32,000 nt of DNA from Ferroglobus placidus DSM 10642 (GTDB lineage Archaea > Halobacteriota > Archaeoglobi > Archaeoglobales > Archaeoglobaceae). Position numbers and translations under genes: made by a program. Every line of letters begins with the position of its first letter. Positions within the stretch are counted from its first letter, which is position 1. Positions 627-31,534 of the stretch are shown here, in pieces. The DNA is taken from NCBI RefSeq assembly GCF_000025505.1, contig NC_013849.1, positions 2,164,267-2,196,266 on the forward strand. The letters are read 5' to 3'. Under the pieces are notes generated by a model. The model saw nothing but the letters and a program-made list of their open reading frames with translations, did not search any database and was not told the origin of the DNA.

Positions 627-699
627 AGCCGCCGCCGGGATTTGAACCCGGGACCTGGTGATTACGAGTCACCCGCTCTACCAGCTGAGCCACGGCGGC
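627..699 (-). tRNA. tRNA-Thr (anticodon CGU)
   Basis: The reverse complement reads GCCGCCGTGGCTCAGCTGGTAGAGCGGGTGACTCGTAATCACCAGGTCCCGGGTTCAAATCCCGGCGGCGGCT. It has a 7-bp acceptor stem (GCCGCCG/CGGCGGC) and an anticodon stem GGTGA/TCACC with loop CTCGTAA, giving anticodon CGT. The T arm is CCGGG-TTCAAAT-CCCGG, the discriminator is U and no CCA is encoded. Confidence 0.93.
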
Positions 700-6927: not shown

Positions 6928-7135
6928 GCACTCTCGCACTGAACAGTATGGTTTGGTAACGTTTCTGATGGGATTTTGTTAATTTTTTAGATTTTAGACC
7001 ATTGCCGCAGCGTGTTCAACTATCAGTTCGGAGAGCTCGTTGATAGTGGAGTAATTCTTAAATCCCCTTTTCATGAGAACTCTTTTGCCTCCCAGTCCAG
7101 TAATGTATATTAACTCACAAGGATAAGAAAAGTTT

Positions 7136-7408
7136 ATGGAATTATCCGTAACCAAGAAAGAGGTTATAGAATACAAAAAGTTGGAGATCATTTCCCATAT
7201 AGCTTCGATTAAATCAAAGATCGAACTTTTCGAGTCAAAATACGGATGCAAGTTTGAAGATTTCGAGAAAAAACTAAAAGAAAGGCAAGATGAAGATTTT
7301 GAGGAATGGGACGATTACATCGAATGGAAGGCGTACGTTAAAACACTCGAAGAGCTAAGAGAAAAGCTCAAGGAGATCGAAAATGCTAAAGACGTTAGAA
7401 TTGCTTGA
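7136..7408 (+). CDS. Small acidic coiled-coil protein, putative antitoxin/partner of the downstream gene
   Basis: 90 aa and very E/K/D-rich (FEDFEKKLKERQDEDFEEWDDYIEWKAYVKTLEELREKLKEIE). It overlaps the next gene by 26 nt, a typical two-gene addiction-module layout. There is no recognisable enzymatic motif. Confidence 0.5.
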   Translation: MELSVTKKEVIEYKKLEIISHIASIKSKIELFESKYGCKFEDFEKKLKERQDEDFEEWDDYIEWKAYVKTLEELREKLKEIENAKDVRIA

Positions 7409-7727
7409 CAAAAGTCCGATCGTTAAGTCTTACGAAATACTCGACTTTAAAAAGGGAAGGGATTTCTACTACCTTAAGATCAAAGCTATTTTAATCAACG
7501 ATACAGTTTTGCACATCAGAGAATACGTCTCACCAGATGACTCATCTTACTCATACAATTGGGTTGATGGGGACGGGAATCTCATTTGCAGATGGGACAA
7601 CGCACCACATTATAAACACATTAAAACGTTTCCGCACCATAAACACACTAAAAATGGGGTTAAAGAGTCATTCGAAACAACTCTACAAGATGTTTTAACT
7701 GTTATTGAAAAGGAAGTTACAACATAA
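7383..7727 (+). CDS. DUF6516/TumE-like putative toxin
   Basis: 114 aa with ...YYLKIKAIL.NDTVLHIREYV...YSYNW.D..GNLICRWDNAPHYKHIKTFPHHKH. I recall the WDNAPHH...FPHHKH His-rich signature as the DUF6516 family, named TumE-family toxin in NCBI. This is from memory only. Confidence 0.5.
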   Translation: MLKTLELLDKSPIVKSYEILDFKKGRDFYYLKIKAILINDTVLHIREYVSPDDSSYSYNWVDGDGNLICRWDNAPHYKHIKTFPHHKHTKNGVKESFETTLQDVLTVIEKEVTT

Positions 7728-7747
7728 CTTTACGCTCAAACAAGTCA

Positions 7748-9310
7748 TTACACCTCCAATCTATATCCCAAAGCCTCAAAAACCCCTCTGATTTTAGCTT
7801 TTAGCTCTTCTTCCTCTTTCAGCAATTTCGAAAGTTCTTCGCTGTAAGATCTCATTTTTTCCTCGAATGTTTGTTCATCATCCAAATCAAGCTTAACTCC
7901 GACGTATCTTCCCGGTGTCAAAACGTAGTTGTTTCTCGCAATTTCTTCTATTGTCGCAACCTTAGCAAATCCAACCTCATCGATTTCCTCAAATCTGCCC
8001 TCCTCGAAAAGCCTGAACTTCTCCACGATCTTGCCTATGTGCTCATCTTTCATCACATTCTGCCTTCTCGAAATTGGCTCGTAGAGATCTTTAGCATTTA
8101 CGAAAAGCACCTTTCCCTTCATGTGCTCTGGCTTTTCCTTCCTGACAAACCAAAGAGAAACTGGCAATGATACGTTGTAGAAGAGCTTTGGTGGGCAAGC
8201 AACAATTCCGTAAACAAGGTCAGCCTTGACTATCGCCTTTCTTATCTCTCTCTACACCGCCAGCGGACAACGCACCGTTTGCCATAACGAAGCCAGCCTT
8301 TCCATTAGGTGCTAAATGATAGACAAAATGAAGTATCCACATATAGTTTGCGTTGCTGTTTGGGGGAACTGGTACTCTGACTCCATTTATTCTCAATCTC
8401 GGATCGTCAGGCTTAATTCTTTCAGCACCCCACTCGCTGTCGTTAAAAGGTGGATTAGAAGTAACATAATCGAACCTCATGTCGTAAAACTTGTCATCAT
8501 GATAGGAATCGCCAACTCTTATGTCTCCTTCAACTCCCCTGATAACTAAGTTCATCTTCGTAAGTTTCCAAGCCATAGGATCGGAATCCTGCCCGTATAT
8601 CTGCAACTCGAACCTATCTATTCCCTCTCTTTCGAGTTTCTCTATCGCTGAAACAAAGAAACCTCCGCTTCCACATGCAGGATCGAACATTCTTCCTCCT
8701 TTAATGTCCAAGACCTCGACTATAAGCTTAGTTAATGATCTTGGTGTGTAAAACTTGCCTCCCCTCTTCCCCTCAACTTCCGTAAACTTCCCCAAGAAAT
8801 ACTCGTAAATTCTGCCGAAAATGTCCCTCGCTTTATGATCGTATCCGAAATCAATCTTCGAAAAGAGGTTTATCAGATAGGCTAAATCGTAGTGGTCGAG
8901 GTTCGAGCTTAGGTAAACCTTTGGAATTACATCTTGTAGCTGTTTCGGATATTTCTTTTCCAGAATTTCTATGGCTCTCTCTATGATTTCTGCTATATTT
9001 GGCTGATTTGCATTTTTGGACAGATAGCTCCATCTTGCCTTTTCCGGAATGTAGAGAACGCCAGCCTCGAGGTAATAGTCCTCGTCCTCCAAAGCAAGCT
9101 CTCTTAACTCTGCACTCGTTTCTTCTTTCATCGAAAGCGTAGGAAAGATAACGCAAAAAGATTAGTCAGAGAACTATGTATTTGTATTGATGTACCTTCT
9201 ACCTTCCTCCTCAACTTATCTGCCGCCTTCCAAAGTTGATTTTCGAAATCGGGTGTTAATTCATGAATCTGAGAATTACCAATATCTACGAAATCGCTGA
9301 GCTTTGCCAT
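7748..9310 (-). pseudogene. hsdM: Type I restriction-modification methylase subunit HsdM, inactivated (three frameshifts and one in-frame TGA)
   Basis: HsdM-colinear peptide pieces lie in different frames. Piece 1 is MAKLSDF..NQLWKAADKLRRKVEG, starting at ATG 9310 behind GGAGGTG. Piece 2 is HQYKYIVL*LIFLRYLSYAFDERRNE, with TGA at 9166-9168 where VLGLIFL is expected. Piece 3 is the 8220-9131 ORF with GKFYTP, DPACGSGGF and NPPFN. Piece 4 is KAIVKADLVYGIVACPPKLFYNVSLPVSLWFV..., continuing into the 7748-8167 ORF. No hsdS or hsdR is adjacent. Confidence 0.85.
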
Positions 9311-9407
9311 CCATCTACACCTCCAAGCAATGTTACTAAAATGCGCGGAATTTTTAGTTTGGGAATAAGGGAAAAAGTTTTGCAAGCAACGTTTTTATAA
9401 AGTTCGT

Positions 9408-10250: not shown

Positions 10251-11171
10251 GTGATAAAGGAGCAGTTTAGAGAGATAAATAGGAAGTTCGTGGAGAAATA
10301 CGAAAAAATAGACGATTCGAAAGAGTTCTACGAGTTCATGGCTAAGCCAATAAGACAGAGCTTCAGAGTTAACACGCTTAAAATAGATGTTAAAAGCGTT
10401 GTGGAAAGATTATCGGAAGAGTTCGAACTCGAAAGAGTCCCTTGGTGTAAAGAGGGGTTTTTCGTTTACGGAGAGGGAATAACCAAAACTCCTGAATTCG
10501 CTCTCGGCTTGATATTCATGCAGGAAGCTTCCTCGATGATACCGCCGGTTGTTATGGATTTGAAGGAGAACCTCTTCGTTCTCGACATGGCAGCCGCTCC
10601 TGGAGCGAAAACGACGCAGATTTCGCAATACATGAACAACACCGGCTGCGTTATTGCCAATGATGTGAAGTACTCGAGGTTGAACATTCTCATTTCTAAC
10701 GTTCAGAAGTACGGATGCATAAACGTTGTTGTGACGGAAAAGGACGGAAGATACTTTGGAAGGTTCAGAGACACCTTCGATAGAGTTTTACTTGATGCTC
10801 CCTGCAGCAACGTGGGGATGATAAGGAAGAACTACAAATATTTAAAGCTCTGGAGGCAGATGGAAGTGGAAGCTTTGTCGAGGCTGCAAAAAAGTCTGAT
10901 TTTGGCAGCTTACAAAGCTTTGAAGCCGAAAGGTGTTCTTGTTTACTCCACTTGCACTCTCGATCCCGAAGAAAATGAAGAAGTAATCGACTACCTTCTC
11001 TACAATACCGACGCGAAGCTCGAAAAAATAAAGCTTCCAGTAAAGTCTACAGAGCCGATATTGGAGTTCAACGGGAAAAGGTACAGCGAAGAAGTCAAAA
11101 AGTGCCTGAGAATTCATCCTCAAGATAACGACACCGAAGGCTTCTTCGTCGCCAAGGTGGTGAAACCGTGA
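10251..11171 (+). CDS. NOL1/NOP2/Sun-family RNA cytosine-C5 methyltransferase (Trm4/RsmF-like catalytic core)
   Basis: SAM motif VLDMAAAPGAKTTQ, motif IV DRVLLDAPCSNVG and motif VI LVYSTCTL, which carry the two catalytic Cys, then NEEV. GTG start. Confidence 0.85.
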   Translation: MIKEQFREINRKFVEKYEKIDDSKEFYEFMAKPIRQSFRVNTLKIDVKSVVERLSEEFELERVPWCKEGFFVYGEGITKTPEFALGLIFMQEASSMIPPVVMDLKENLFVLDMAAAPGAKTTQISQYMNNTGCVIANDVKYSRLNILISNVQKYGCINVVVTEKDGRYFGRFRDTFDRVLLDAPCSNVGMIRKNYKYLKLWRQMEVEALSRLQKSLILAAYKALKPKGVLVYSTCTLDPEENEEVIDYLLYNTDAKLEKIKLPVKSTEPILEFNGKRYSEEVKKCLRIHPQDNDTEGFFVAKVVKP

Positions 11172-11566
11172 ACTATTTGGAAATTTTAAGGGAACTTTAC
11201 GGAGTCGAGAAGGTGAATTTCGAGCTGAAAAAGATGGGAAAGGACAGGCTCTACGCTTTTCTGAAGTGCGACAAGAAGGACGAGCTCGGGATAAAAGAGT
11301 ACCACCAAGGAGTCTACTTCGGCAAGCTCGAAAAAGATGGGATAAGGTTGAGCATAGAGGGTTGCTATTTGCTTCGAGACGAGATTAAGAAAAACCTCAT
11401 AGAAGTTTCCTACGAAGATGCGATTAAGTGGTTGAAAGGAGAAGATTTGGATATTCCTTACAAAGGATACGTCGTGCTGAAGTGGAGAAACTACTTTTTG
11501 GGTTGCGGAAAGGGGGATGGAAAGAAAATAAGGAACTACGTCCCTAAGGAGAGGAGAATAATCTAA
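11168..11566 (+). CDS. Stand-alone PUA-like RNA-binding domain of the RsmF/YebU C-terminal type
   Basis: 132 aa ending GYVVLKWRNYFLGCGKGDGKKIRNYVPKERRI, which matches the G.v.l...g..lG.GK..g..lkN.yPk..R tail of the RsmF C-terminal PUA-like domain. It overlaps the methyltransferase gene by 4 nt (GTGA). Confidence 0.55.
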   Translation: MNYLEILRELYGVEKVNFELKKMGKDRLYAFLKCDKKDELGIKEYHQGVYFGKLEKDGIRLSIEGCYLLRDEIKKNLIEVSYEDAIKWLKGEDLDIPYKGYVVLKWRNYFLGCGKGDGKKIRNYVPKERRII

Positions 11567-11602: not shown

Positions 11603-12115
11603 ATGGATCCGAGAGCGTTTTATAAAATAAGTTACGGACTTTACGTCGTTTCCTCCTCCTACAATGGTAGACTGAGCGGGCAAATTGCCAATACAGTTTT
11701 TCAGGTCTCCTCAGAGCCTCCGATGATTGCAGCTTGTTTGAACAAGAAAAACTTCACCCACGAAATAGTGAAGTCGAGTAAGGTTTTCGCTGTTAGCGTT
11801 TTGGAAGCTGAAACGCCACTGACGTTCATAGGAAGGTTTGGGTTCAGAAGTAGCAGGGACTTCGACAAGTTTGAAGGAGTGGATTACGAAATAGGAGTAA
11901 CTGGCGCTCCAGTCGTAATTCAGCATGCAACAGCAATTTTCGAGGCAAAGGTCGTTAAGGAGTGCGACGTTGGAACTCACACCTTGTTTATCGGTGAAGT
12001 CGTGAGGGCTGAGCTGAGAAGAGATGCCGAAGTTTTGACTTACGCCGACTACCATCGGATTAAGAAAGGAAAAACTCCGAAAACTGCTACCGTTTACTTC
12101 GATAAGCAAAGTTAG
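11603..12115 (+). CDS. Flavin reductase-like (FMN-binding split-barrel) protein
   Basis: 170 aa. YGLYVVSS.....SGQIANTV.QVSSEPP.IA.CLNK.N.THE.....K.FAVSVL and H.LFIGEVV are typical of the flavin reductase/DIM6-NTAB family. Confidence 0.8.
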   Translation: MDPRAFYKISYGLYVVSSSYNGRLSGQIANTVFQVSSEPPMIAACLNKKNFTHEIVKSSKVFAVSVLEAETPLTFIGRFGFRSSRDFDKFEGVDYEIGVTGAPVVIQHATAIFEAKVVKECDVGTHTLFIGEVVRAELRRDAEVLTYADYHRIKKGKTPKTATVYFDKQS

Positions 12116-12123
12116 TTGCTAAA

Positions 12124-12153
12124 TTGCAAAAAATGCAACATTGATGCTTTTTT
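12124..12153 (+). terminator. Possible terminator: short dyad followed by a T7 run after the flavin reductase gene
   Basis: The dyad TTGCA-AAAAA-TGCAA sits at 12124-12138. It is followed by GCTTTTTTT, with the T run ending at 12153, starting about 10 nt after the TAG stop. Oligo-T tracts are the usual archaeal termination signal. Confidence 0.3.
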
Positions 12154-12154
12154 T

Positions 12155-12764
12155 ATCACTCACTTTTTGGGCTTTCGAACAATTTTAAATTTTGGAGATA
12201 ATAATAAAAAATTAAAATTTAAACTTTTTAAATTATATCTTCTAACTCTTATGTTTTCCATTTTTAAATCTTTTATAAAAATTAAAATGACAAAAATTGA
12301 ATTGATAATTTAAATTAATTAAATATTAATGAGCTATGTAATCTGTAGCCTTATCACAAAATTTTTAGAATACAACATTTTTAGGTTTACCTAAAAATGT
12401 TGAATGTGGCGACTCGCTTGTTCCAAAAATTATGTGAATTTAGGCTGCGTCGCGAATTTACCCCCCCTTAACTGCATGAAGTGTGCAAATTTGTGAAACA
12501 ACGCTATTTAACGGTGTTAAATATTACAATAATTTTGGAATAAAGATTATTTAGCCTCAGCAATATATATTTGCTTCAAAATTAACTGCTCAAGAAATTA
12601 TTGATTTGTGAGTAGATATTTGAATATACAAAATTAAAAACTAAAATTAATTAAAATAAATTTTGAAAATTAATATATTACATTAAATAAATAATTTTAA
12701 TTAAATTACTTAGATACAACAGAACAAATGTAAATTAACCTCCAAGTTTCAAAAAGTGAGTGAT
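12155..12764. repeat. 610-bp extremely AT-rich non-coding element bounded by a perfect 15-bp inverted repeat
   Basis: ATCACTCACTTTTTG at 12155-12169 is the exact reverse complement of CAAAAAGTGAGTGAT at 12750-12764. The interior has no credible ORF. One example line, 12661-12720, has 6 G/C in 60 nt. See findings. Confidence 0.6.
12373..12402. repeat. 30-bp near-perfect palindrome
   Basis: CAACATTTTTAGGT-TT-ACCTAAAAATGTTG has 14-bp arms and a 2-nt centre. It lies inside the AT-rich gap. Confidence 0.7.
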
Positions 12765-12826
12765 GAAGAAGAGAGAAGATTTTGGGGAAAACGTATAAGA
12801 GTGAGTAAAGCAGATGTTCGGATGTT

Positions 12827-13945
12827 ATGAAAATTTCGAAAAGCGCGTATCGGAAGAGAGTTGAAAAAGTCCAAGAGCTTATGGAAAAGGAAGGGATAGA
12901 CGCTTTCCTCGTGCTTTCCCTCGAAAATTACAGGTATTTCACTGGAGATGTGAGAAAGCAACCGAGGATGGTAATTCCGTCTAACGACGAGCCTTTTTTA
13001 ATAGTTTTCGACACCGAAAAAGAGGAAGCTGAGAAAAAGACCGGTCTCGAGGCAAAAACCTATAGATCCCTCCCGGATATGATGAAGCACATCGTAGCAT
13101 TCACAAACTCCCTTGGGGACAACCCGAAGATAGCTGTTGAGATGGAGTTTTCAACGCCAGCTTTTCTCCTTGAGAGGTTCAGAAAAATGAATCCTCACGT
13201 GGAAGTTGTAGATGCGAAGCAGATAGTTGCTCCGCTGAGAAAATACAAAGACGAGTACGAGTTAGAACTCATGAAAAAAGCTGGAAAACTTGCGGATGTG
13301 GCAATGGAAAAAGTCTTGGACGTTTTGAAGCCGGGAGTTGCAGAGAGAGAAGTTGCCAACGAAGTGGAGTACTACATCAGAAAGAAGGGAGCTGAAAGGC
13401 TCGCTTTTCCTATGTTCGTTAATTCCGGAGAAAGGAGTCTCTGGCTTCACGGTTTAGCTACAGACAGAAAAATTGAGGAGGGAGATGTGGTTTTAATAGA
13501 TGTAGGTCCGGTTTACGAGGGATACTGCGCTGACATAGCGAGAACTTTCGTTGTAGGTAAAGCTACCGAAGAGCAAAAAAGAGCTCATTCAGCTTACGTG
13601 GAATTACAGGAGAGAGTCGTGGAAATTATCGAAAAAGAAAAGAACGAAATATCGATTCTTGAGATAGAGAGAAGAAACGAGGAGTTCATGAAAAGCAAGG
13701 GCTTTGGAAACTTTTACGTAAAAGGATTTCTCCACGGGATCGGACTGAATTTCGAAGAGACTCCGTTTCCAACGATATTTCCCGAAGATTTGAGGGAGGT
13801 TGTCGAGGAAAGAATGACTTTGTCAGTTGGACATTCTGTTCTCTCAATCAAAGGCGTTGGGGGATTTAGAGTTGAGGATACCATTTACGTTGGAGAAAAA
13901 ATCGAGTTCCTTACGACTTTCACCAGAGAACTTCTGGAGGTGTGA
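12827..13945 (+). CDS. M24-family Xaa-Pro aminopeptidase/dipeptidase
   Basis: 372 aa. A creatinase-like N-domain is followed by a pita-bread domain carrying the metal-ligand context: VVLIDVGPVYEGYCADIARTF, HGIGLNFEE, GFRVEDTI. Confidence 0.85.
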   Translation: MKISKSAYRKRVEKVQELMEKEGIDAFLVLSLENYRYFTGDVRKQPRMVIPSNDEPFLIVFDTEKEEAEKKTGLEAKTYRSLPDMMKHIVAFTNSLGDNPKIAVEMEFSTPAFLLERFRKMNPHVEVVDAKQIVAPLRKYKDEYELELMKKAGKLADVAMEKVLDVLKPGVAEREVANEVEYYIRKKGAERLAFPMFVNSGERSLWLHGLATDRKIEEGDVVLIDVGPVYEGYCADIARTFVVGKATEEQKRAHSAYVELQERVVEIIEKEKNEISILEIERRNEEFMKSKGFGNFYVKGFLHGIGLNFEETPFPTIFPEDLREVVEERMTLSVGHSVLSIKGVGGFRVEDTIYVGEKIEFLTTFTRELLEV

Positions 13946-17329: not shown

Positions 17330-17379
17330 ATTTTTTTGAAACTAAAAAAGTTAAATGGCTTGAAAACCTAATAACTTTA

Positions 17380-17439
17380 GCCGCTGTGATGATTACTCCC
17401 GCTGCTGACACGTGATGATTATTGCGCTATCTGAGCGGC
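17380..17439 (+). ncRNA. Box C/D sRNA (2'-O-methylation guide)
   Basis: GCCGC-T-GTGATGA(C, 17386-17392)-TTACTCCCGCTG-CTGA(D', 17405-17408)-CAC-GTGATGA(C', 17412-17418)-TTATTGCGCTAT-CTGA(D, 17431-17434)-GCGGC. There are two 12-nt guides, a 3-nt D'/C' spacer and a 5-bp terminal stem GCCGC/GCGGC. Confidence 0.85.
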
Positions 17440-17621
17440 TACCATTCTATGCTTATCGCGTTGTTCGGACAGGCTCTCGTGCACGCGCCGCACTCCATGC
17501 AGAGGTCTTCGTTTACCTTAGCCACACCGCCGTCGAGATATATGGCTCCTCCCTTCTCGCTGCAAACTTCCACGCAGGCTCCGCATCCATCGCACTTTGA
17601 AGCGTCAATTACGGCAGGCAT
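17439..17621 (-). CDS. 2x[4Fe-4S] ferredoxin
   Basis: 60 aa with CDGCGACVEVC and CMECGACTRACP. Confidence 0.9.
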   Translation of the reverse strand: MPAVIDASKCDGCGACVEVCSEKGGAIYLDGGVAKVNEDLCMECGACTRACPNNAISIEW

Positions 17622-17725
17622 AATAAAAGCTTACACAACTTGAAATTAAAATTCGAGGGCTTTTTCGGTTTTTACTCAAACGCTCACACCCGATAACCTT
17701 TAAATCTTATCTCACGAATATCCTC

Positions 17726-17783
17726 TGTCGATGATGACGAGCGCGGGTGCTGAAAAGTGATGAAGAGCTGACGGTCTGAGACG
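17726..17783 (+). ncRNA. Box C/D sRNA (2'-O-methylation guide)
   Basis: TGTCG-ATGATGA(C, 17731-17737)-CGAGCGCGGGTG-CTGA(D', 17750-17753)-AAA-GTGATGA(C', 17757-17763)-AGAGCTGACGGT-CTGA(D, 17776-17779)-GACG. There are two 12-nt guides, a 3-nt spacer and a short GTC/GAC terminal pairing. Confidence 0.8.
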
Positions 17784-17829
17784 TTACAATAAAAAATTCC
17801 CTGAGTGAAAAACTAAAAAAGAGTTAAAA

Positions 17830-30021: not shown

Positions 30022-30663
30022 ATGAACAACGAACTCGTGGAAGGATTGAAAGATCTGAAGACTGGTGCTCTGCTAAATTTGTTAGCGATGCTACTGATTT
30101 TCTTCGGAATGGGAATTATGTTCGCGACTTTCGGATTTACTCCAATGAGAGAGATTAAGCCGGAAGAGTTTCTCGGAATGATGGCTGTTTTCGGCATTTT
30201 CGCCCTTCTTTTCCTTTTGGCGATAATTTTGAGTTTAGCGAGCTTCATCATGTACTTCAAAGCCACGGGACACCTGAAAAATTACGATGAGAGGTACGGA
30301 GTTGGAAGAAAGGGGATGATTCTTGAAATAATAGGCAGTATTTTGATACTCGCATCTTTTATCCCGCTTACGGCAACTGGAACCACTAAAGAATTTCACT
30401 ACGCAACCTTCGAGATACTTGCGGCATTCTCGCTTGTATTCGCAGGAGCCATCGCTTTAATAGTGGGAGCAATTCTTTTCGGGATTATGCTGATGAGGCT
30501 TGAGGAAGTTGAAAGCGATTTCAAAGTTGCTGGAATACTCTATTTCCTCGGAATGATACTGAGCTTTTTCACAGGAATTATTGGGGTGCTGATCGGAATA
30601 GCAACTACAGCTCTAATTTACATCAGCGCAAAAAGCGCTTTAAAGAGGATATCCGCTGCTTGA
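30022..30663 (+). CDS. Integral membrane protein of unknown function
   Basis: 213 aa with about six long hydrophobic segments. No catalytic motif is recognised. Confidence 0.65.
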   Translation: MNNELVEGLKDLKTGALLNLLAMLLIFFGMGIMFATFGFTPMREIKPEEFLGMMAVFGIFALLFLLAIILSLASFIMYFKATGHLKNYDERYGVGRKGMILEIIGSILILASFIPLTATGTTKEFHYATFEILAAFSLVFAGAIALIVGAILFGIMLMRLEEVESDFKVAGILYFLGMILSFFTGIIGVLIGIATTALIYISAKSALKRISAA

Positions 30664-30702
30664 AGAGAAAATGTTTTATCCAATCCCGTATTACTTATAT
30701 TC

Positions 30703-30914
30703 GACCCCAGCGGGGAGGGGTGTGGAGAGAGCTAAGCTTTCGATGAAGCTCCCTGCAAGGCTGGGGTTACACCATGCCGATAGGTCCCCTGGTGAGAGAG
30801 CCCTGGCTTTCGATGACCCTGGGGCAACCCGGGCATGGGACAAAGCCCCGAGAGGTCAGCCGTTTGAGAGAGCGCAGCTTTCGATGATATACGGCGTTAC
30901 ACTCGGGGCACAGG
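30703..30914 (+). ncRNA. Three-hairpin box H/ACA sRNA (pseudouridylation guide)
   Basis: There are three consecutive units with the same architecture: a 7-bp lower stem, an internal pocket, an upper stem, a K-turn, an apical hairpin GAGAGC-loop-GCTTTC, then ACA. Unit 1 has CCCCAGC(30705-30711)/GCTGGGG(30760-30766) with ACA at 30769-30771. Unit 2 has CCATGCC(30772-30778)/GGCATGG(30832-30838) with ACA at 30840-30842. Unit 3 has CCCCGAG(30846-30852)/CTCGGGG(30902-30908) with ACA at 30910-30912. Each ACA lies 14-15 nt from the top of the 3' pocket strand. The lower and upper stems covary between units. Confidence 0.78.
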
Positions 30915-30916
30915 AA

Positions 30917-31534
30917 TTAGAAAACCTTTTTGAGTAAATCTTCGAACTCCTCTCTTCTGATAACTCTTCCGTGCCCCGGATAGAGTTTCTCAAACTCAAA
31001 TTTCAAAACCTTCCTCAGGCTCCTTCTGTATTCTTCGTCGTTCCAGTTGAAGTTTTTCGAGGACAACGTTGGATTGTCACTAAAGACTTTACATCTAACG
31101 AGATCTCCGCAAATAAGCGAGTCACCGACGAGAATGGAAATGCTTCCTTCAGTGTGTCCGGGAGTGTGGATTATTTCGAGATCTTTTAACTCCTCTACGC
31201 TTTCAACCTCCTCAAGATACTTTGGCTTCTTTATGCTTTCGTAAAACCTCGCAAAAGACCCTATCAAGCCCTTGTATTCGTGTTTCTTAATTCCTTTAAG
31301 ATATTCGAACTCTTTCGGATGTGCGTATACCTTGCTCTTCAAAATTTTCGAAAGAGCGCGAGCTGAGCCCATGTGATCGAAGTGGGAGTGCGTGAGAATA
31401 ATTCCTTCGCATTCCTTAACAGCTTCGGCAATTCTCCTTTCATTCCCCGGTAATCCGGTATCTACGACGTATTTCTTTCCATCAACTACTACGAGGTAAA
31501 CGTTACAGCCTTTCGCCTTTATCAGTTCCACCAT
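30917..31534 (-). CDS. Metallo-beta-lactamase-fold hydrolase
   Basis: About 205 aa from the ATG at 31534. It has the motif ILTHSHFDHMG and a later HTPGHT. The tracked ORF's 92-aa N-terminal extension overlaps the divergent archease gene, so it is unlikely to be real. Confidence 0.8.
   Translation of the reverse strand: MVELIKAKGCNVYLVVVDGKKYVVDTGLPGNERRIAEAVKECEGIILTHSHFDHMGSARALSKILKSKVYAHPKEFEYLKGIKKHEYKGLIGSFARFYESIKKPKYLEEVESVEELKDLEIIHTPGHTEGSISILVGDSLICGDLVRCKVFSDNPTLSSKNFNWNDEEYRRSLRKVLKFEFEKLYPGHGRVIRREEFEDLLKKVF

Follow-up and report, generated by a model that had tools for sequence, protein, structure and literature searches.

What occupies the 711 bp (12116-12826) that separate a flavin (ferric) reductase gene, ending in a TAG stop codon at 12113-12115, from an M24 peptidase gene, beginning with an ATG at 12827, on the chromosome of the heat-loving archaeon Ferroglobus placidus? 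Positions are those of the window, the whole stretch of 32,000 nucleotides that was analysed. The gap has a GC content of 24.6%, with G or C at just 6 positions of 12661-12720, and an earlier note on this DNA had proposed a replication origin, a MITE or a small RNA locus on the strength of an inverted repeat, a palindrome, a C7 run and GTGAGTR motifs, all of which, like the 711-bp gap itself, are present where it had placed them. Judged by its sequence, the gap is non-coding and composite in structure; it is maintained by selection and, among the Archaeoglobi loci compared, found in Ferroglobus only. The reading that we prefer, a tentative one that may well prove wrong, is that a small non-coding transcription unit, constrained in sequence and specific to Ferroglobus, lies at about 12400-12620 between two ordinary AT-rich spacers.

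The composition of the gap, which had been called extreme, is usual for intergenic DNA here as far as AT-richness goes, the other promoter gaps of the F. placidus genome ranging from 23 to 39% GC; its length is unusual, since those gaps measure at most 276 bp and the next AT-rich gap 236-276 bp. In layout, about 250 bp of AT-rich DNA is followed by a central module of about 120-220 bp and then by about 200 bp of AT-rich DNA (Table 1). Both AT-extreme arms are the lowest-GC DNA of the window, and the left one, taken over 12170-12370, has 16.9% GC in F. placidus against 15.3% in a sister species; the central island reaches 38-44% GC over 12375-12500, the genome mean being 44%. Because the centre lies at the genome mean, the arms at 4-16% GC and ordinary gaps at no more than 276 bp, a length of 711 bp fits a spacer, a small gene and a second spacer.

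Table 1. Features of the gap between the flavin reductase and M24 peptidase genes
Feature	Position	Strand	Description
T7 run and left repeat arm	12148-12169	+	oligo-T cluster
Left repeat arm ATCACTCACTTTTTG	12155-12169	+	conserved core 12157-12169
Left AT-extreme arm	12175-12325	.	GC 8-16% in 50-bp windows
30-bp palindrome CAACATTTTTAGGT-TT-ACCTAAAAATGTTG	12373-12402	.	14-bp arms
Central module	12405-12620 (about)	.	genome-average GC island with conserved blocks
Conserved central blocks	12418-12443, 12455-12477, 12514-12528, 12578-12593, 12611-12621		26, 23 (with C7 run), 15, 16 and 11 nt
Right AT-extreme arm	12600-12725	.	GC 4-16%
Right repeat arm CAAAAAGTGAGTGAT	12750-12764	-	conserved core 12750-12761; minus strand reads ATCACTCACTTTTTG
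M24 peptidase operon BRE/TATA, AAAAC + GTATAAGA	12781-12803	+	34 nt before ATG

The evidence for selection comes from that sister species, a second Ferroglobus species (L002) with the same order of flavin reductase gene, AT-rich gap (701 bp) and M24 peptidase gene. The two gaps are 71-73% identical, with 23 gap columns in the alignment, and four-fold degenerate sites of the same species pair (n = 494) show 54% identity, which is near saturation; the gap is thus conserved above the neutral rate, and it is so in a mosaic pattern, with eight runs of 12-26 nt that do not differ at all, among them the two repeat cores and the half-sites of the palindrome, and neutral-level segments between them. 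There are no indels from 12238 to 12612 (374 columns), identity in the left arm is 57-80%, and 12683-12742 combines neutral-level identity with an 18-nt indel, while the 23-mer TAAAATTAATTAAAATAAATTTT at 12642-12664, BRE/TATA-like on the minus strand, is perfectly conserved. The element is absent from the loci of other Archaeoglobi (Geoglobus, JdFR-42 and others), where both flanking genes lie elsewhere with short gaps, and because those genes sit in other contexts in more distant relatives, the comparison stays at two sequences.

This conservation is not that of a protein-coding gene. A comparison of the six-frame translations of both species gave no conserved ORF of at least 30 aa, which agrees with the earlier note's statement that the gap lacks a credible ORF. 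It is very unlikely that a small protein is made from the 30-aa ORF at 12404-12496, even though its ATG is kept, its frame is open in both species (30 and 35 codons) despite the stop-rich DNA, and 20 of its 30 residues are identical. The identical residues lie in blocks almost without synonymous change (2 such changes in the conserved codons against roughly 6-7 expected, an estimate from third-position and four-fold identities) and the other codons change radically (W/Q, A/H, C/Y), so the constraint is on nucleotides, not on amino acids. Moreover, only two of the four cysteines remain, the two species disagree at the C-terminus, and a Pfam search of this ORF and of a 65-aa ORF returned no match. 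Read-through of the flavin reductase stop codon into the 65-aa frame was also considered and rejected, as that frame ends after 27 codons in the sister species.

The gap is thus conserved beyond the neutral rate and lacks coding potential, as one would ask of an intergenic sRNA gene, which is a functional class and no homology family, and this leaves the small RNA option of the earlier note standing in part: a sequence-constrained transcript is the most economical reading, and a structured RNA is not upheld. Rfam covariance models gave no match in the gap (best E = 0.23, for rli30, not reproduced in the sister species), no tRNA was found there, and the folding energy was no better than that of shuffled sequences (plus strand z = -1.33, minus strand z = -0.18). 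Nor is there an excess of covariation between the two sequences, where 24 of 60 column shuffles did as well as the best conserved stem (5 changes) or better; a 7-bp stem, 12405-12411 / 12448-12454, that keeps pairing through 5 transitions was accordingly rejected as evidence. Known structural RNAs of hyperthermophiles have raised GC, and the GC of the centre is not elevated; this, like the Rfam, folding and covariation results, counts against the small-RNA reading. Inspection by eye for a C/D-box sRNA yielded a single GTGATGA, at 12758, which is not conserved and lacks a D box, and this candidate was dropped.

The central module may accordingly be pictured as a small gene, absent from the annotation, that would make a small RNA and no protein. 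This candidate RNA would be constrained by primary sequence, for instance in base-pairing or protein-binding segments, and not by secondary structure, and its gene would have its own promoter and terminator located in the AT-rich arms. Candidate signals for the minus strand are the BRE/TATA-like block at 12642-12664 together with a T5 tract at 12425-12429. Against this picture, a promoter position weight matrix trained on 21 upstream regions of F. placidus found no site both conserved and well placed for the centre, and in the window it did not confirm the site at 12642-12664; a literature search retrieved no published RNA-seq or small-RNA work on F. placidus. We infer that the module is transcribed, and likewise its strand and the roles of the palindrome and of the inverted repeat.

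There is precedent for such loci in the Archaea, in that conserved intergenic regions of Pyrococcus abyssi are reported to have been shown to encode sRNAs (PMC3124441), and by analogy this counts for the small-RNA reading. The gap resembles the intergenic sRNA genes of the hyperthermophilic Euryarchaeota P. abyssi (PMC3124441, PMC3849170) and Thermococcus kodakarensis (PMC4247193), traced by way of conserved intergenic regions, in having conserved blocks within AT-rich intergenic DNA, no ORF, a lineage-restricted distribution and no Rfam family; those loci differ in having mapped transcripts and a recognisable BRE/TATA, the transcript of the Ferroglobus gap being putative and no promoter there being at once conserved and well placed.

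Perfectly conserved blocks of 23-26 bp would suit protein-binding DNA equally well, and the main competitor of the small-RNA reading makes the gap cis-acting DNA only, with a regulatory or architectural task and no transcript of its own. The palindrome, the 12-mers of the inverted repeat, the TTAACTGC boxes and the 23-26-bp blocks would then be clustered binding sites through which chromatin proteins or transcription factors regulate the M24 operon or organise the chromosome locally, for instance by a loop that joins the 12-mers. We regard this as rather improbable. It would account for a constraint that falls on primary sequence and not on RNA structure, for the indel-free alignment columns, and for the TTAACTGC boxes at 12468 and 12582, whose spacing of 114 bp is identical in both species. 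The right 12-mer, moreover, lies about 32 nt upstream of the M24 BRE/TATA. Against it, the M24 promoter serves other genera without any of these elements, the motifs are not repeated upstream of other genes within about 40 kb of F. placidus, and the centre, with its GC at the genome average, looks like a gene in composition. Since most archaeal promoters are simple, at least six operators spread over 600 bp would be exceptional.

The palindrome bears on both readings. Hairpin arms of 14 bp or more arose in one of 500 shuffles, and in the sister species only the half-sites of 7-8 bp are retained, the conserved parts TTTTAGG (12379-12385) and CCTAAAA (12390-12396) enclosing 4 nt that vary. Retained half-sites with a variable centre are typical of a dimer site, which speaks for cis-acting DNA, and the palindrome resembles an operator to which a protein dimer would bind, a candidate role. 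Archaeal dimeric transcription regulators use palindromic operators, and the likeness to these lies in the conserved 7-bp half-sites and the variable 4-nt centre; the difference is that here there is no adjacent regulator gene and no second site in the window. In the small-RNA reading the adjacent TTTTAGG-N4-CCTAAAA would be the likely operator of the small RNA gene. A XerA/dif site was rejected for the palindrome, as its outer arms differ between the species, unlike dif. Among the smaller motifs, the C7 run occupies 12461-12467 and CAAATTTG lies at 12486, and a likeness to a relic CRISPR repeat or leader (GTTCCAA...GAATT) was rejected, since there is no direct repeat copy. The plus strand has GTGAGTR at 12608, 12756 and 12801 and the minus strand has it at 12157, which makes four of the seven copies in the window; all four copies listed earlier are there, but only the two within the inverted repeat are kept in the sister species.

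The edges of the gap carry the signals of its neighbours. Archaeal RNA polymerase terminates at oligo-T, and the cluster at 12148-12169 is on that account probably the terminator of the RsmB-PUA-flavin reductase operon; the oligo-T tracts on this side are T7 and T5 in the window and T6, T5 and T5 in L002 and L042. On the other side, the M24 promoter lies at the position given in Table 1; L002 and L037 have its 23-mer without any change, its 11-mer AAAACGTATAA also occurs upstream of the gene at 770, and its distance from the ATG implies that the M24 mRNA would be leaderless or have a very short leader. In another genus (L063), GGGAAAAC-ATATATGA stands 33 nt before the M24 ATG with no AT-rich element upstream, and because the proximal promoter is equally spaced in a genus without the element, the upstream 650 bp are dispensable as an M24 promoter.

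The gap further contains the two arms of the inverted repeat, the left one within the oligo-T cluster; they lie 580 bp apart, are exactly complementary over 15 bp and extend to 21 nt at 90%. When the gap was shuffled 500 times by dinucleotides, 2 of the shuffles contained a perfect inverted repeat of at least 15 bp, and both cores are conserved in the sister species. The 12-mer core ACTCACTTTTTG, which reads inward whichever strand is taken, is identical between the arms and between the species, and the position and length of the arms are kept while the outer 3-9 nt have drifted; cores kept perfectly amid drifting surroundings indicate selection, not decay. As both arms read as ATCACTCACTTTTTG, transcription entering the gap from either side meets a T5 tract. 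For the small-RNA reading, the 12-nt ACTCACTTTTTG cores would probably be paired boundary elements, acting as T5 terminators or as binding sites that halt transcription of the flanking operons before it reaches the module.

Terminal inverted repeats also suggest a MITE, which might be an old non-autonomous element that entered the genome of the Ferroglobus ancestor and later lost its mobility or was co-opted. The repeats themselves (15 bp perfect, 21 bp at 90%), the AT-rich interior, the restriction to one lineage at a junction missing from other genera, and assembly contigs that frequently break within the gap all favour such an origin, and yet we consider it unlikely. The contig breaks coincide with the palindrome and with low-complexity DNA (4-6% GC) and not with the ends of the repeats; the flanks (...GATGC/TTTTTT and GAAGAA/GAGAG) contain no direct repeat, which bears out the absence of a target-site duplication already remarked upon; and arm position, length and the inner 12 nt have been kept across a divergence at which four-fold sites are near saturation. 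Searches for a further copy were negative in about 40 kb of F. placidus (32 kb + 8.6 kb), in the loci of other Archaeoglobi, and in viral, metagenome, plasmid and phage sets: two invariant blocks scanned against viral contigs had 0 matches, in metagenome contigs one had 0 and the other 11 chance matches, none similar in its flanks, and BLAST against plasmids and phages gave no relevant match. MITEs are known from Archaea, for example the SM elements of Sulfolobus. The gap shares with them terminal inverted repeats, an AT-rich non-coding interior and lineage restriction, and it differs in its size (about 610 bp, long for this class), in having no target-site duplication, in being single in the sequences scanned and in the purifying selection on its inner repeat cores. 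The MITE option of the earlier note is not supported by the sequences scanned.

Perfect inverted repeats around a promoter-rich AT segment directly upstream of a gene would likewise be expected of an inverton, in which a site-specific recombinase flips the 580-bp segment between the repeats and so alters expression of the M24 operon. This we hold to be highly improbable: in assembled contigs, every contig that crosses either arm (F. placidus read sets SRR3923786 and SRR019237, and the sister species; two more samples share identical contigs) has one orientation, the M24 promoter lies outside the repeats, and no recombinase is found among the window ORFs scanned.

The same pair of inverted 12-15-mers could instead be initiator sites around AT-rich unwinding DNA, that is, a non-canonical chromosomal origin, which we also judge improbable. 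In its favour are a long AT-rich intergenic stretch with an inverted-repeat pair, kept in the sister species at a synteny break, and arms (4-16% GC) that form the GC minimum of the window. The absence of an adjacent orc1/cdc6 gene, pointed out in the earlier note, holds for the flanks, but an orc1/cdc6 gene lies 19.3 kb to the right, just beyond the end of the window, on a chromosome of 2.2 Mb. In Archaeoglobus, where the origin of A. fulgidus was mapped by marker frequency and that of A. profundus predicted, origins sit away from cdc6 with two inverted elements, and an adjacent initiator gene is thus not obligatory (PMC3035285). The Ferroglobus gap shares with the Archaeoglobus origin a long non-coding stretch, two inverted elements, a cdc6 gene that is not adjacent and the order Archaeoglobales; theirs, however, is the 22-bp ORB TTTCCACAGGAAATAAAGGGGT, where the gap has ACTCACTTTTTG and no ORB, and the elements are 1,264 bp apart there and 580 bp here (PMC3035285).

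As the criterion for an origin we took at least two ORB or mini-ORB elements, of consensus TTTCCACAGGAAATAAAGGGGT or core TCCA..GAAA plus a G-string. What was found is a long intergenic region with AT-rich DNA between inverted repeats, and neither an ORB pair nor an adjacent initiator gene (orc1/cdc6, whiP). The Archaeoglobales ORB TTTCCACAGGAAATAAAGGGGT (22-mer), sought with up to 3 mismatches, has 0 matches in the window, and exact matches number 0 in the loci scanned; the generic core TTCCANNGGAAA is missing from the gap at up to 1 mismatch. An ORB-like site at 30566-30587 (18/22), the only one in the window, was rejected, as it lies inside a CDS and changes synonymously in the sister species. 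The gap has a single repeat pair and no array, its flanks (flavin reductase, M24 peptidase) include no initiator or other replication gene, the flanking operons are co-directional with local GC skew positive throughout the gap and no switch, and the gap upstream of orc1/cdc6 likewise has no ORB. The origin option, although its AT-rich DNA between inverted repeats is real, is therefore not sustained. In a related form, also improbable, the gap might be a cis-acting chromosomal element undescribed in Archaeoglobales, such as an ORB-less (secondary) origin or a chromosome-organising site, whose ACTCACTTTTTG boxes and central blocks would recruit a lineage-specific factor, with orc1/cdc6 19 kb off.

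For specialists, the locus is well-delimited conserved non-coding DNA of unproven function, and as such no surprise. If its centre is transcribed, it would add a small RNA specific to Ferroglobus, with invariant segments of unusual length (26 and 23 nt) and a neat boundary architecture; if it is a cis-acting DNA element, it would show that initiator or organiser sites in Archaeoglobales can depart from the canonical ORB.

The interval between the flavin reductase and M24 peptidase genes is a real, well-delimited and conserved non-coding locus of 711 bp and 24.6% GC. The sequence items that an earlier note had described there (the inverted repeat, the palindrome, the C7 run, the 8-bp palindrome CAAATTTG and four GTGAGTR copies) were all found in place, both when the sequence was read directly and when it was scanned by script. 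Of 500 dinucleotide-shuffled versions of the gap, 2 contained a perfect inverted repeat as long as this one, and a hairpin with 14-bp arms arose in 1 of 500. The gap had also been called extreme, which holds for its length and not for its AT-rich composition, since intergenic DNA of this genome is generally AT-rich (other gaps have 23-45% GC, promoter-bearing ones 23-39%). Two AT-extreme arms (12175-12325 at 8-16% GC and 12600-12725 at 4-16% GC) enclose a central island, 12375-12500, whose 38-44% GC is the same as the genome mean.

Features of the gap and its flanking genes (window positions; perfect runs and neutral segments refer to the alignment with the sister species)
Feature	Position	Strand	Detail
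Flavin reductase ORF	11603-12115	+	Pfam Flavin_Reduct
M24 peptidase ORF	12827-13945	+	Creatinase_N + Peptidase_M24
Inverted repeat	12155-12169 and 12750-12764		15 bp
Palindrome	12373-12402		30 bp
C7 run	12461-12467
Perfect run	12157-12169		13 nt
Perfect run	12418-12443		26 nt
Perfect run	12455-12477		23 nt
Perfect run	12514-12528		15 nt
Perfect run	12578-12593		16 nt
Perfect run	12642-12664		23 nt
Perfect run	12750-12761		12 nt
Perfect run	12781-12803		23 nt
Segments at or below neutral level	12116-12145, 12324-12353, 12474-12503, 12683-12742

The proteins of the window are closest to those of Archaeoglobi, and for the flavin reductase the best foreign match bears the name Ferroglobus sp. A second Ferroglobus species (contigs L002, L037 and L042), with proteins 84-95% identical to those of the window, has the same order of flavin reductase, a 701-bp AT-rich gap and M24. 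Between the two species, six flanking genes, taken as the neutral yardstick, are 54% identical at their 494 four-fold degenerate sites and 60-74% at third codon positions. For the gap, identity is 71% when every column is counted and 73% when gapped ones are left out; only 23 columns of the alignment are gapped, none of them within 12238-12612. Conservation is mosaic: perfect runs take turns with stretches whose identity is no higher than neutral. The GC content of the left arm (12170-12370) is 16.9% in F. placidus and 15.3% in L002, that of the right arm (12621-12749) 13.2% and 12.7%, so that the arms stay extreme in composition in both species. By this comparison the locus is under selection, and neither junk nor a recent insertion. 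Nothing like it was found at the flanking-gene loci of more distant Archaeoglobi (among them Geoglobus ahangari, JdFR-42, A. fulgidus and several MAGs), where the two genes stand beside different genes, with short gaps upstream.

Several observations concern other parts of the window. About 2.5 kb (6928-9407) is missing from sister contig L042, where Band_7 comes immediately after the UPF0020 methyltransferase gene. The extra DNA contains an MJ0235/TumE-like pair (7136-7727) and an N6_Mtase/HsdM broken into two ORFs (7748-8167, 8220-9131), and looks like a degraded restriction-modification/toxin-antitoxin islet. An RsmB/F-type methyltransferase (10251-11171) and a PUA domain (11168-11566) form separate ORFs with a 4-nt overlap, a split that is genuine and not a sequencing error, since the sister species has it too (L042 2892-3812, 3809-4207). 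The apparent 500-bp gap at 17330-17829 (44% GC) is no real gap, because it holds a 60-aa minus-strand ORF (17439-17621) whose two CxxCxxCxxxCP motifs mark a small 2x[4Fe-4S] ferredoxin. The HgcG/Pab40 H/ACA RNA at 30646-30917 (Rfam, 88.4 bits) shares 18 nt with the 3' end of a DUF973 gene; automatic gene calls on Logan contigs place over it an 88-aa ORF (10650-10916 of L059, a contig running past the window's right end), which is probably spurious.

Both edges of the gap look like ordinary gene-boundary signals, and the remaining ~650 bp are something extra. A T7 run precedes the left repeat arm, which itself ends in T5, and the sister species has T6, T5 and T5 at this position. An oligo-T cluster at the end of an operon is how archaeal terminators look, and from this established knowledge the left edge looks like the terminator cluster of the upstream operon. 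At the right edge, a perfectly conserved 23-mer, TTTGGGGAAAACGTATAAGAGTG, holds AAAAC and GTATAAGA, 34 nt before the M24 ATG. In another genus, which lacks the AT-rich element upstream, GGGAAAAC and ATATATGA precede the M24 start codon by 33 nt; the proximal BRE/TATA is thus conserved at the same spacing where the element is missing, so a proximal promoter of its own serves the M24 operon, whose mRNA is probably leaderless. The BRE/TATA 11-mer AAAACGTATAA occurs in this promoter (12788-12798) and at 743-753, in the promoter region that separates tRNA-Thr (627-699, minus strand) from an aminotransferase gene at 770.

What the extra sequence does is a matter of weighing several readings, the first being a replication origin. 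As the earlier note had remarked, no orc1/cdc6 gene adjoins the gap; the nearest one found, by extension through Logan contig L059, lies 19.3 kb away (~32134-33369; L059 12113-13348), starts 134 nt past the window end and encodes a 411-aa product with AAA, Cdc6_lid and WHD_Cdc6 domains, and its 146-bp upstream region is not AT-rich and contains no ORB, the origin recognition element. The lack of an adjacent gene is not decisive, since origins in Archaeoglobus are far from cdc6 according to the genome paper on A. profundus (PMC3035285); the testable defining feature is a pair of inverted 22-bp ORBs (TTTCCACAGGAAATAAAGGGGT), in agreement with the mapped A. fulgidus origin (PMC3035285). No ORB occurs anywhere in the window at up to 3 mismatches and the generic TTCCANNGGAAA core is missing from the gap, so that the origin option failed its defining test. 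The gap has only three motifs that are both repeated and conserved (the paired 12-mer repeats, the half-sites of the palindrome and two TTAACTGC boxes with a spacing of 114 bp) and lacks an initiator-site array; with replication genes absent from the window and local GC skew keeping its sign across the gap, we regard an origin as improbable. One site, TTTTCACAGGAATTATTGGGGT at 30566-30587, agrees with the A. profundus ORB in 18 of 22 positions; it was rejected as a chance match because it lies, partnerless, within the DUF973 coding sequence and, in the sister species (L062), shows three synonymous differences.

A MITE, the second option, is equally doubtful. Its defining test likewise failed: the gap has no target-site duplication, as first noticed. 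Searches of ~40 kb of this genome, of other Archaeoglobi loci and of viral contigs, plasmids and phages brought up no further copy; metagenome contigs gave 0 matches for one invariant block and 11 for a 20-mer, none of the 11 with flank similarity. Contigs assembled independently from short reads or 454 data, for F. placidus and for the sister species, do break in the gap (L034, L035, L036, L037, L042, L043 and L044, at window equivalents of about 12134, 12205, 12395 and 12640-12684), but the breaks are at the palindrome or within the low-complexity stretch 12640-12684 (4-6% GC), away from the repeat ends. In L034, which comes from a 454-era run, the A5 homopolymer at 12636 is A4. Both arms have the same inner 12 nt in both species, whereas their outer positions have drifted, the opposite of neutral decay. 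That the repeats bound an inverton is scarcely credible, given that contigs crossing either arm have one orientation only and the repeats do not enclose the M24 promoter.

That the gap has no credible ORF was borne out, no frame holding an ORF conserved between window and sister species. A 30-aa ORF (12404-12496) keeps its ATG and an open frame there, with only 2 synonymous differences among identical codons (~6-7 expected by our own estimate from third-position and four-fold identities); the remaining codons change radically and 2 of 4 cysteines are lost. It was rejected as a protein, the few synonymous changes and radical codon differences pointing to constraint on nucleotides, not amino acids. 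Judged from the aligned sequences, constraint on the gap as a whole is on primary sequence. Structural RNAs of hyperthermophiles are GC-enriched, and the centre of the gap is not; Rfam returned no family for the gap at gathering threshold and none reproducibly at E up to 10, folding energy was no better than that of shuffles on either strand, and 24 of 60 column shuffles held a stem at least as good as the best covarying one. The third option, a non-coding RNA, thus survives in a sequence-constrained form and not as a structured RNA. A promoter PWM trained on 21 promoters of this genome gave no site for the centre of the gap that is both conserved and well placed; the conserved block 12642-12664 reads as BRE/TATA-like on the minus strand, accompanied by a conserved T5 tract at 12425-12429, and the plus strand has no T5 tract between 12383 and the M24 gene. 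We found no paper on F. placidus RNA-seq. The main rival, that the gap is purely a cis-acting cluster of protein-binding sites, we consider rather unlikely.

We tentatively favour a small Ferroglobus-specific non-coding transcription unit at ~12400-12620, because the layout (~250 bp of AT-rich spacer, a block of genic GC with long invariant segments, and ~200 bp of AT-rich spacer) matches two ordinary intergenic regions around a small gene in this genome. In such a unit the TTTTAGG-N4-CCTAAAA palindrome would be the likely operator, and the identical inward-facing ACTCACTTTTTG boxes may be boundary or terminator elements. The locus would then join the lineage-specific intergenic non-coding loci of hyperthermophilic archaea.
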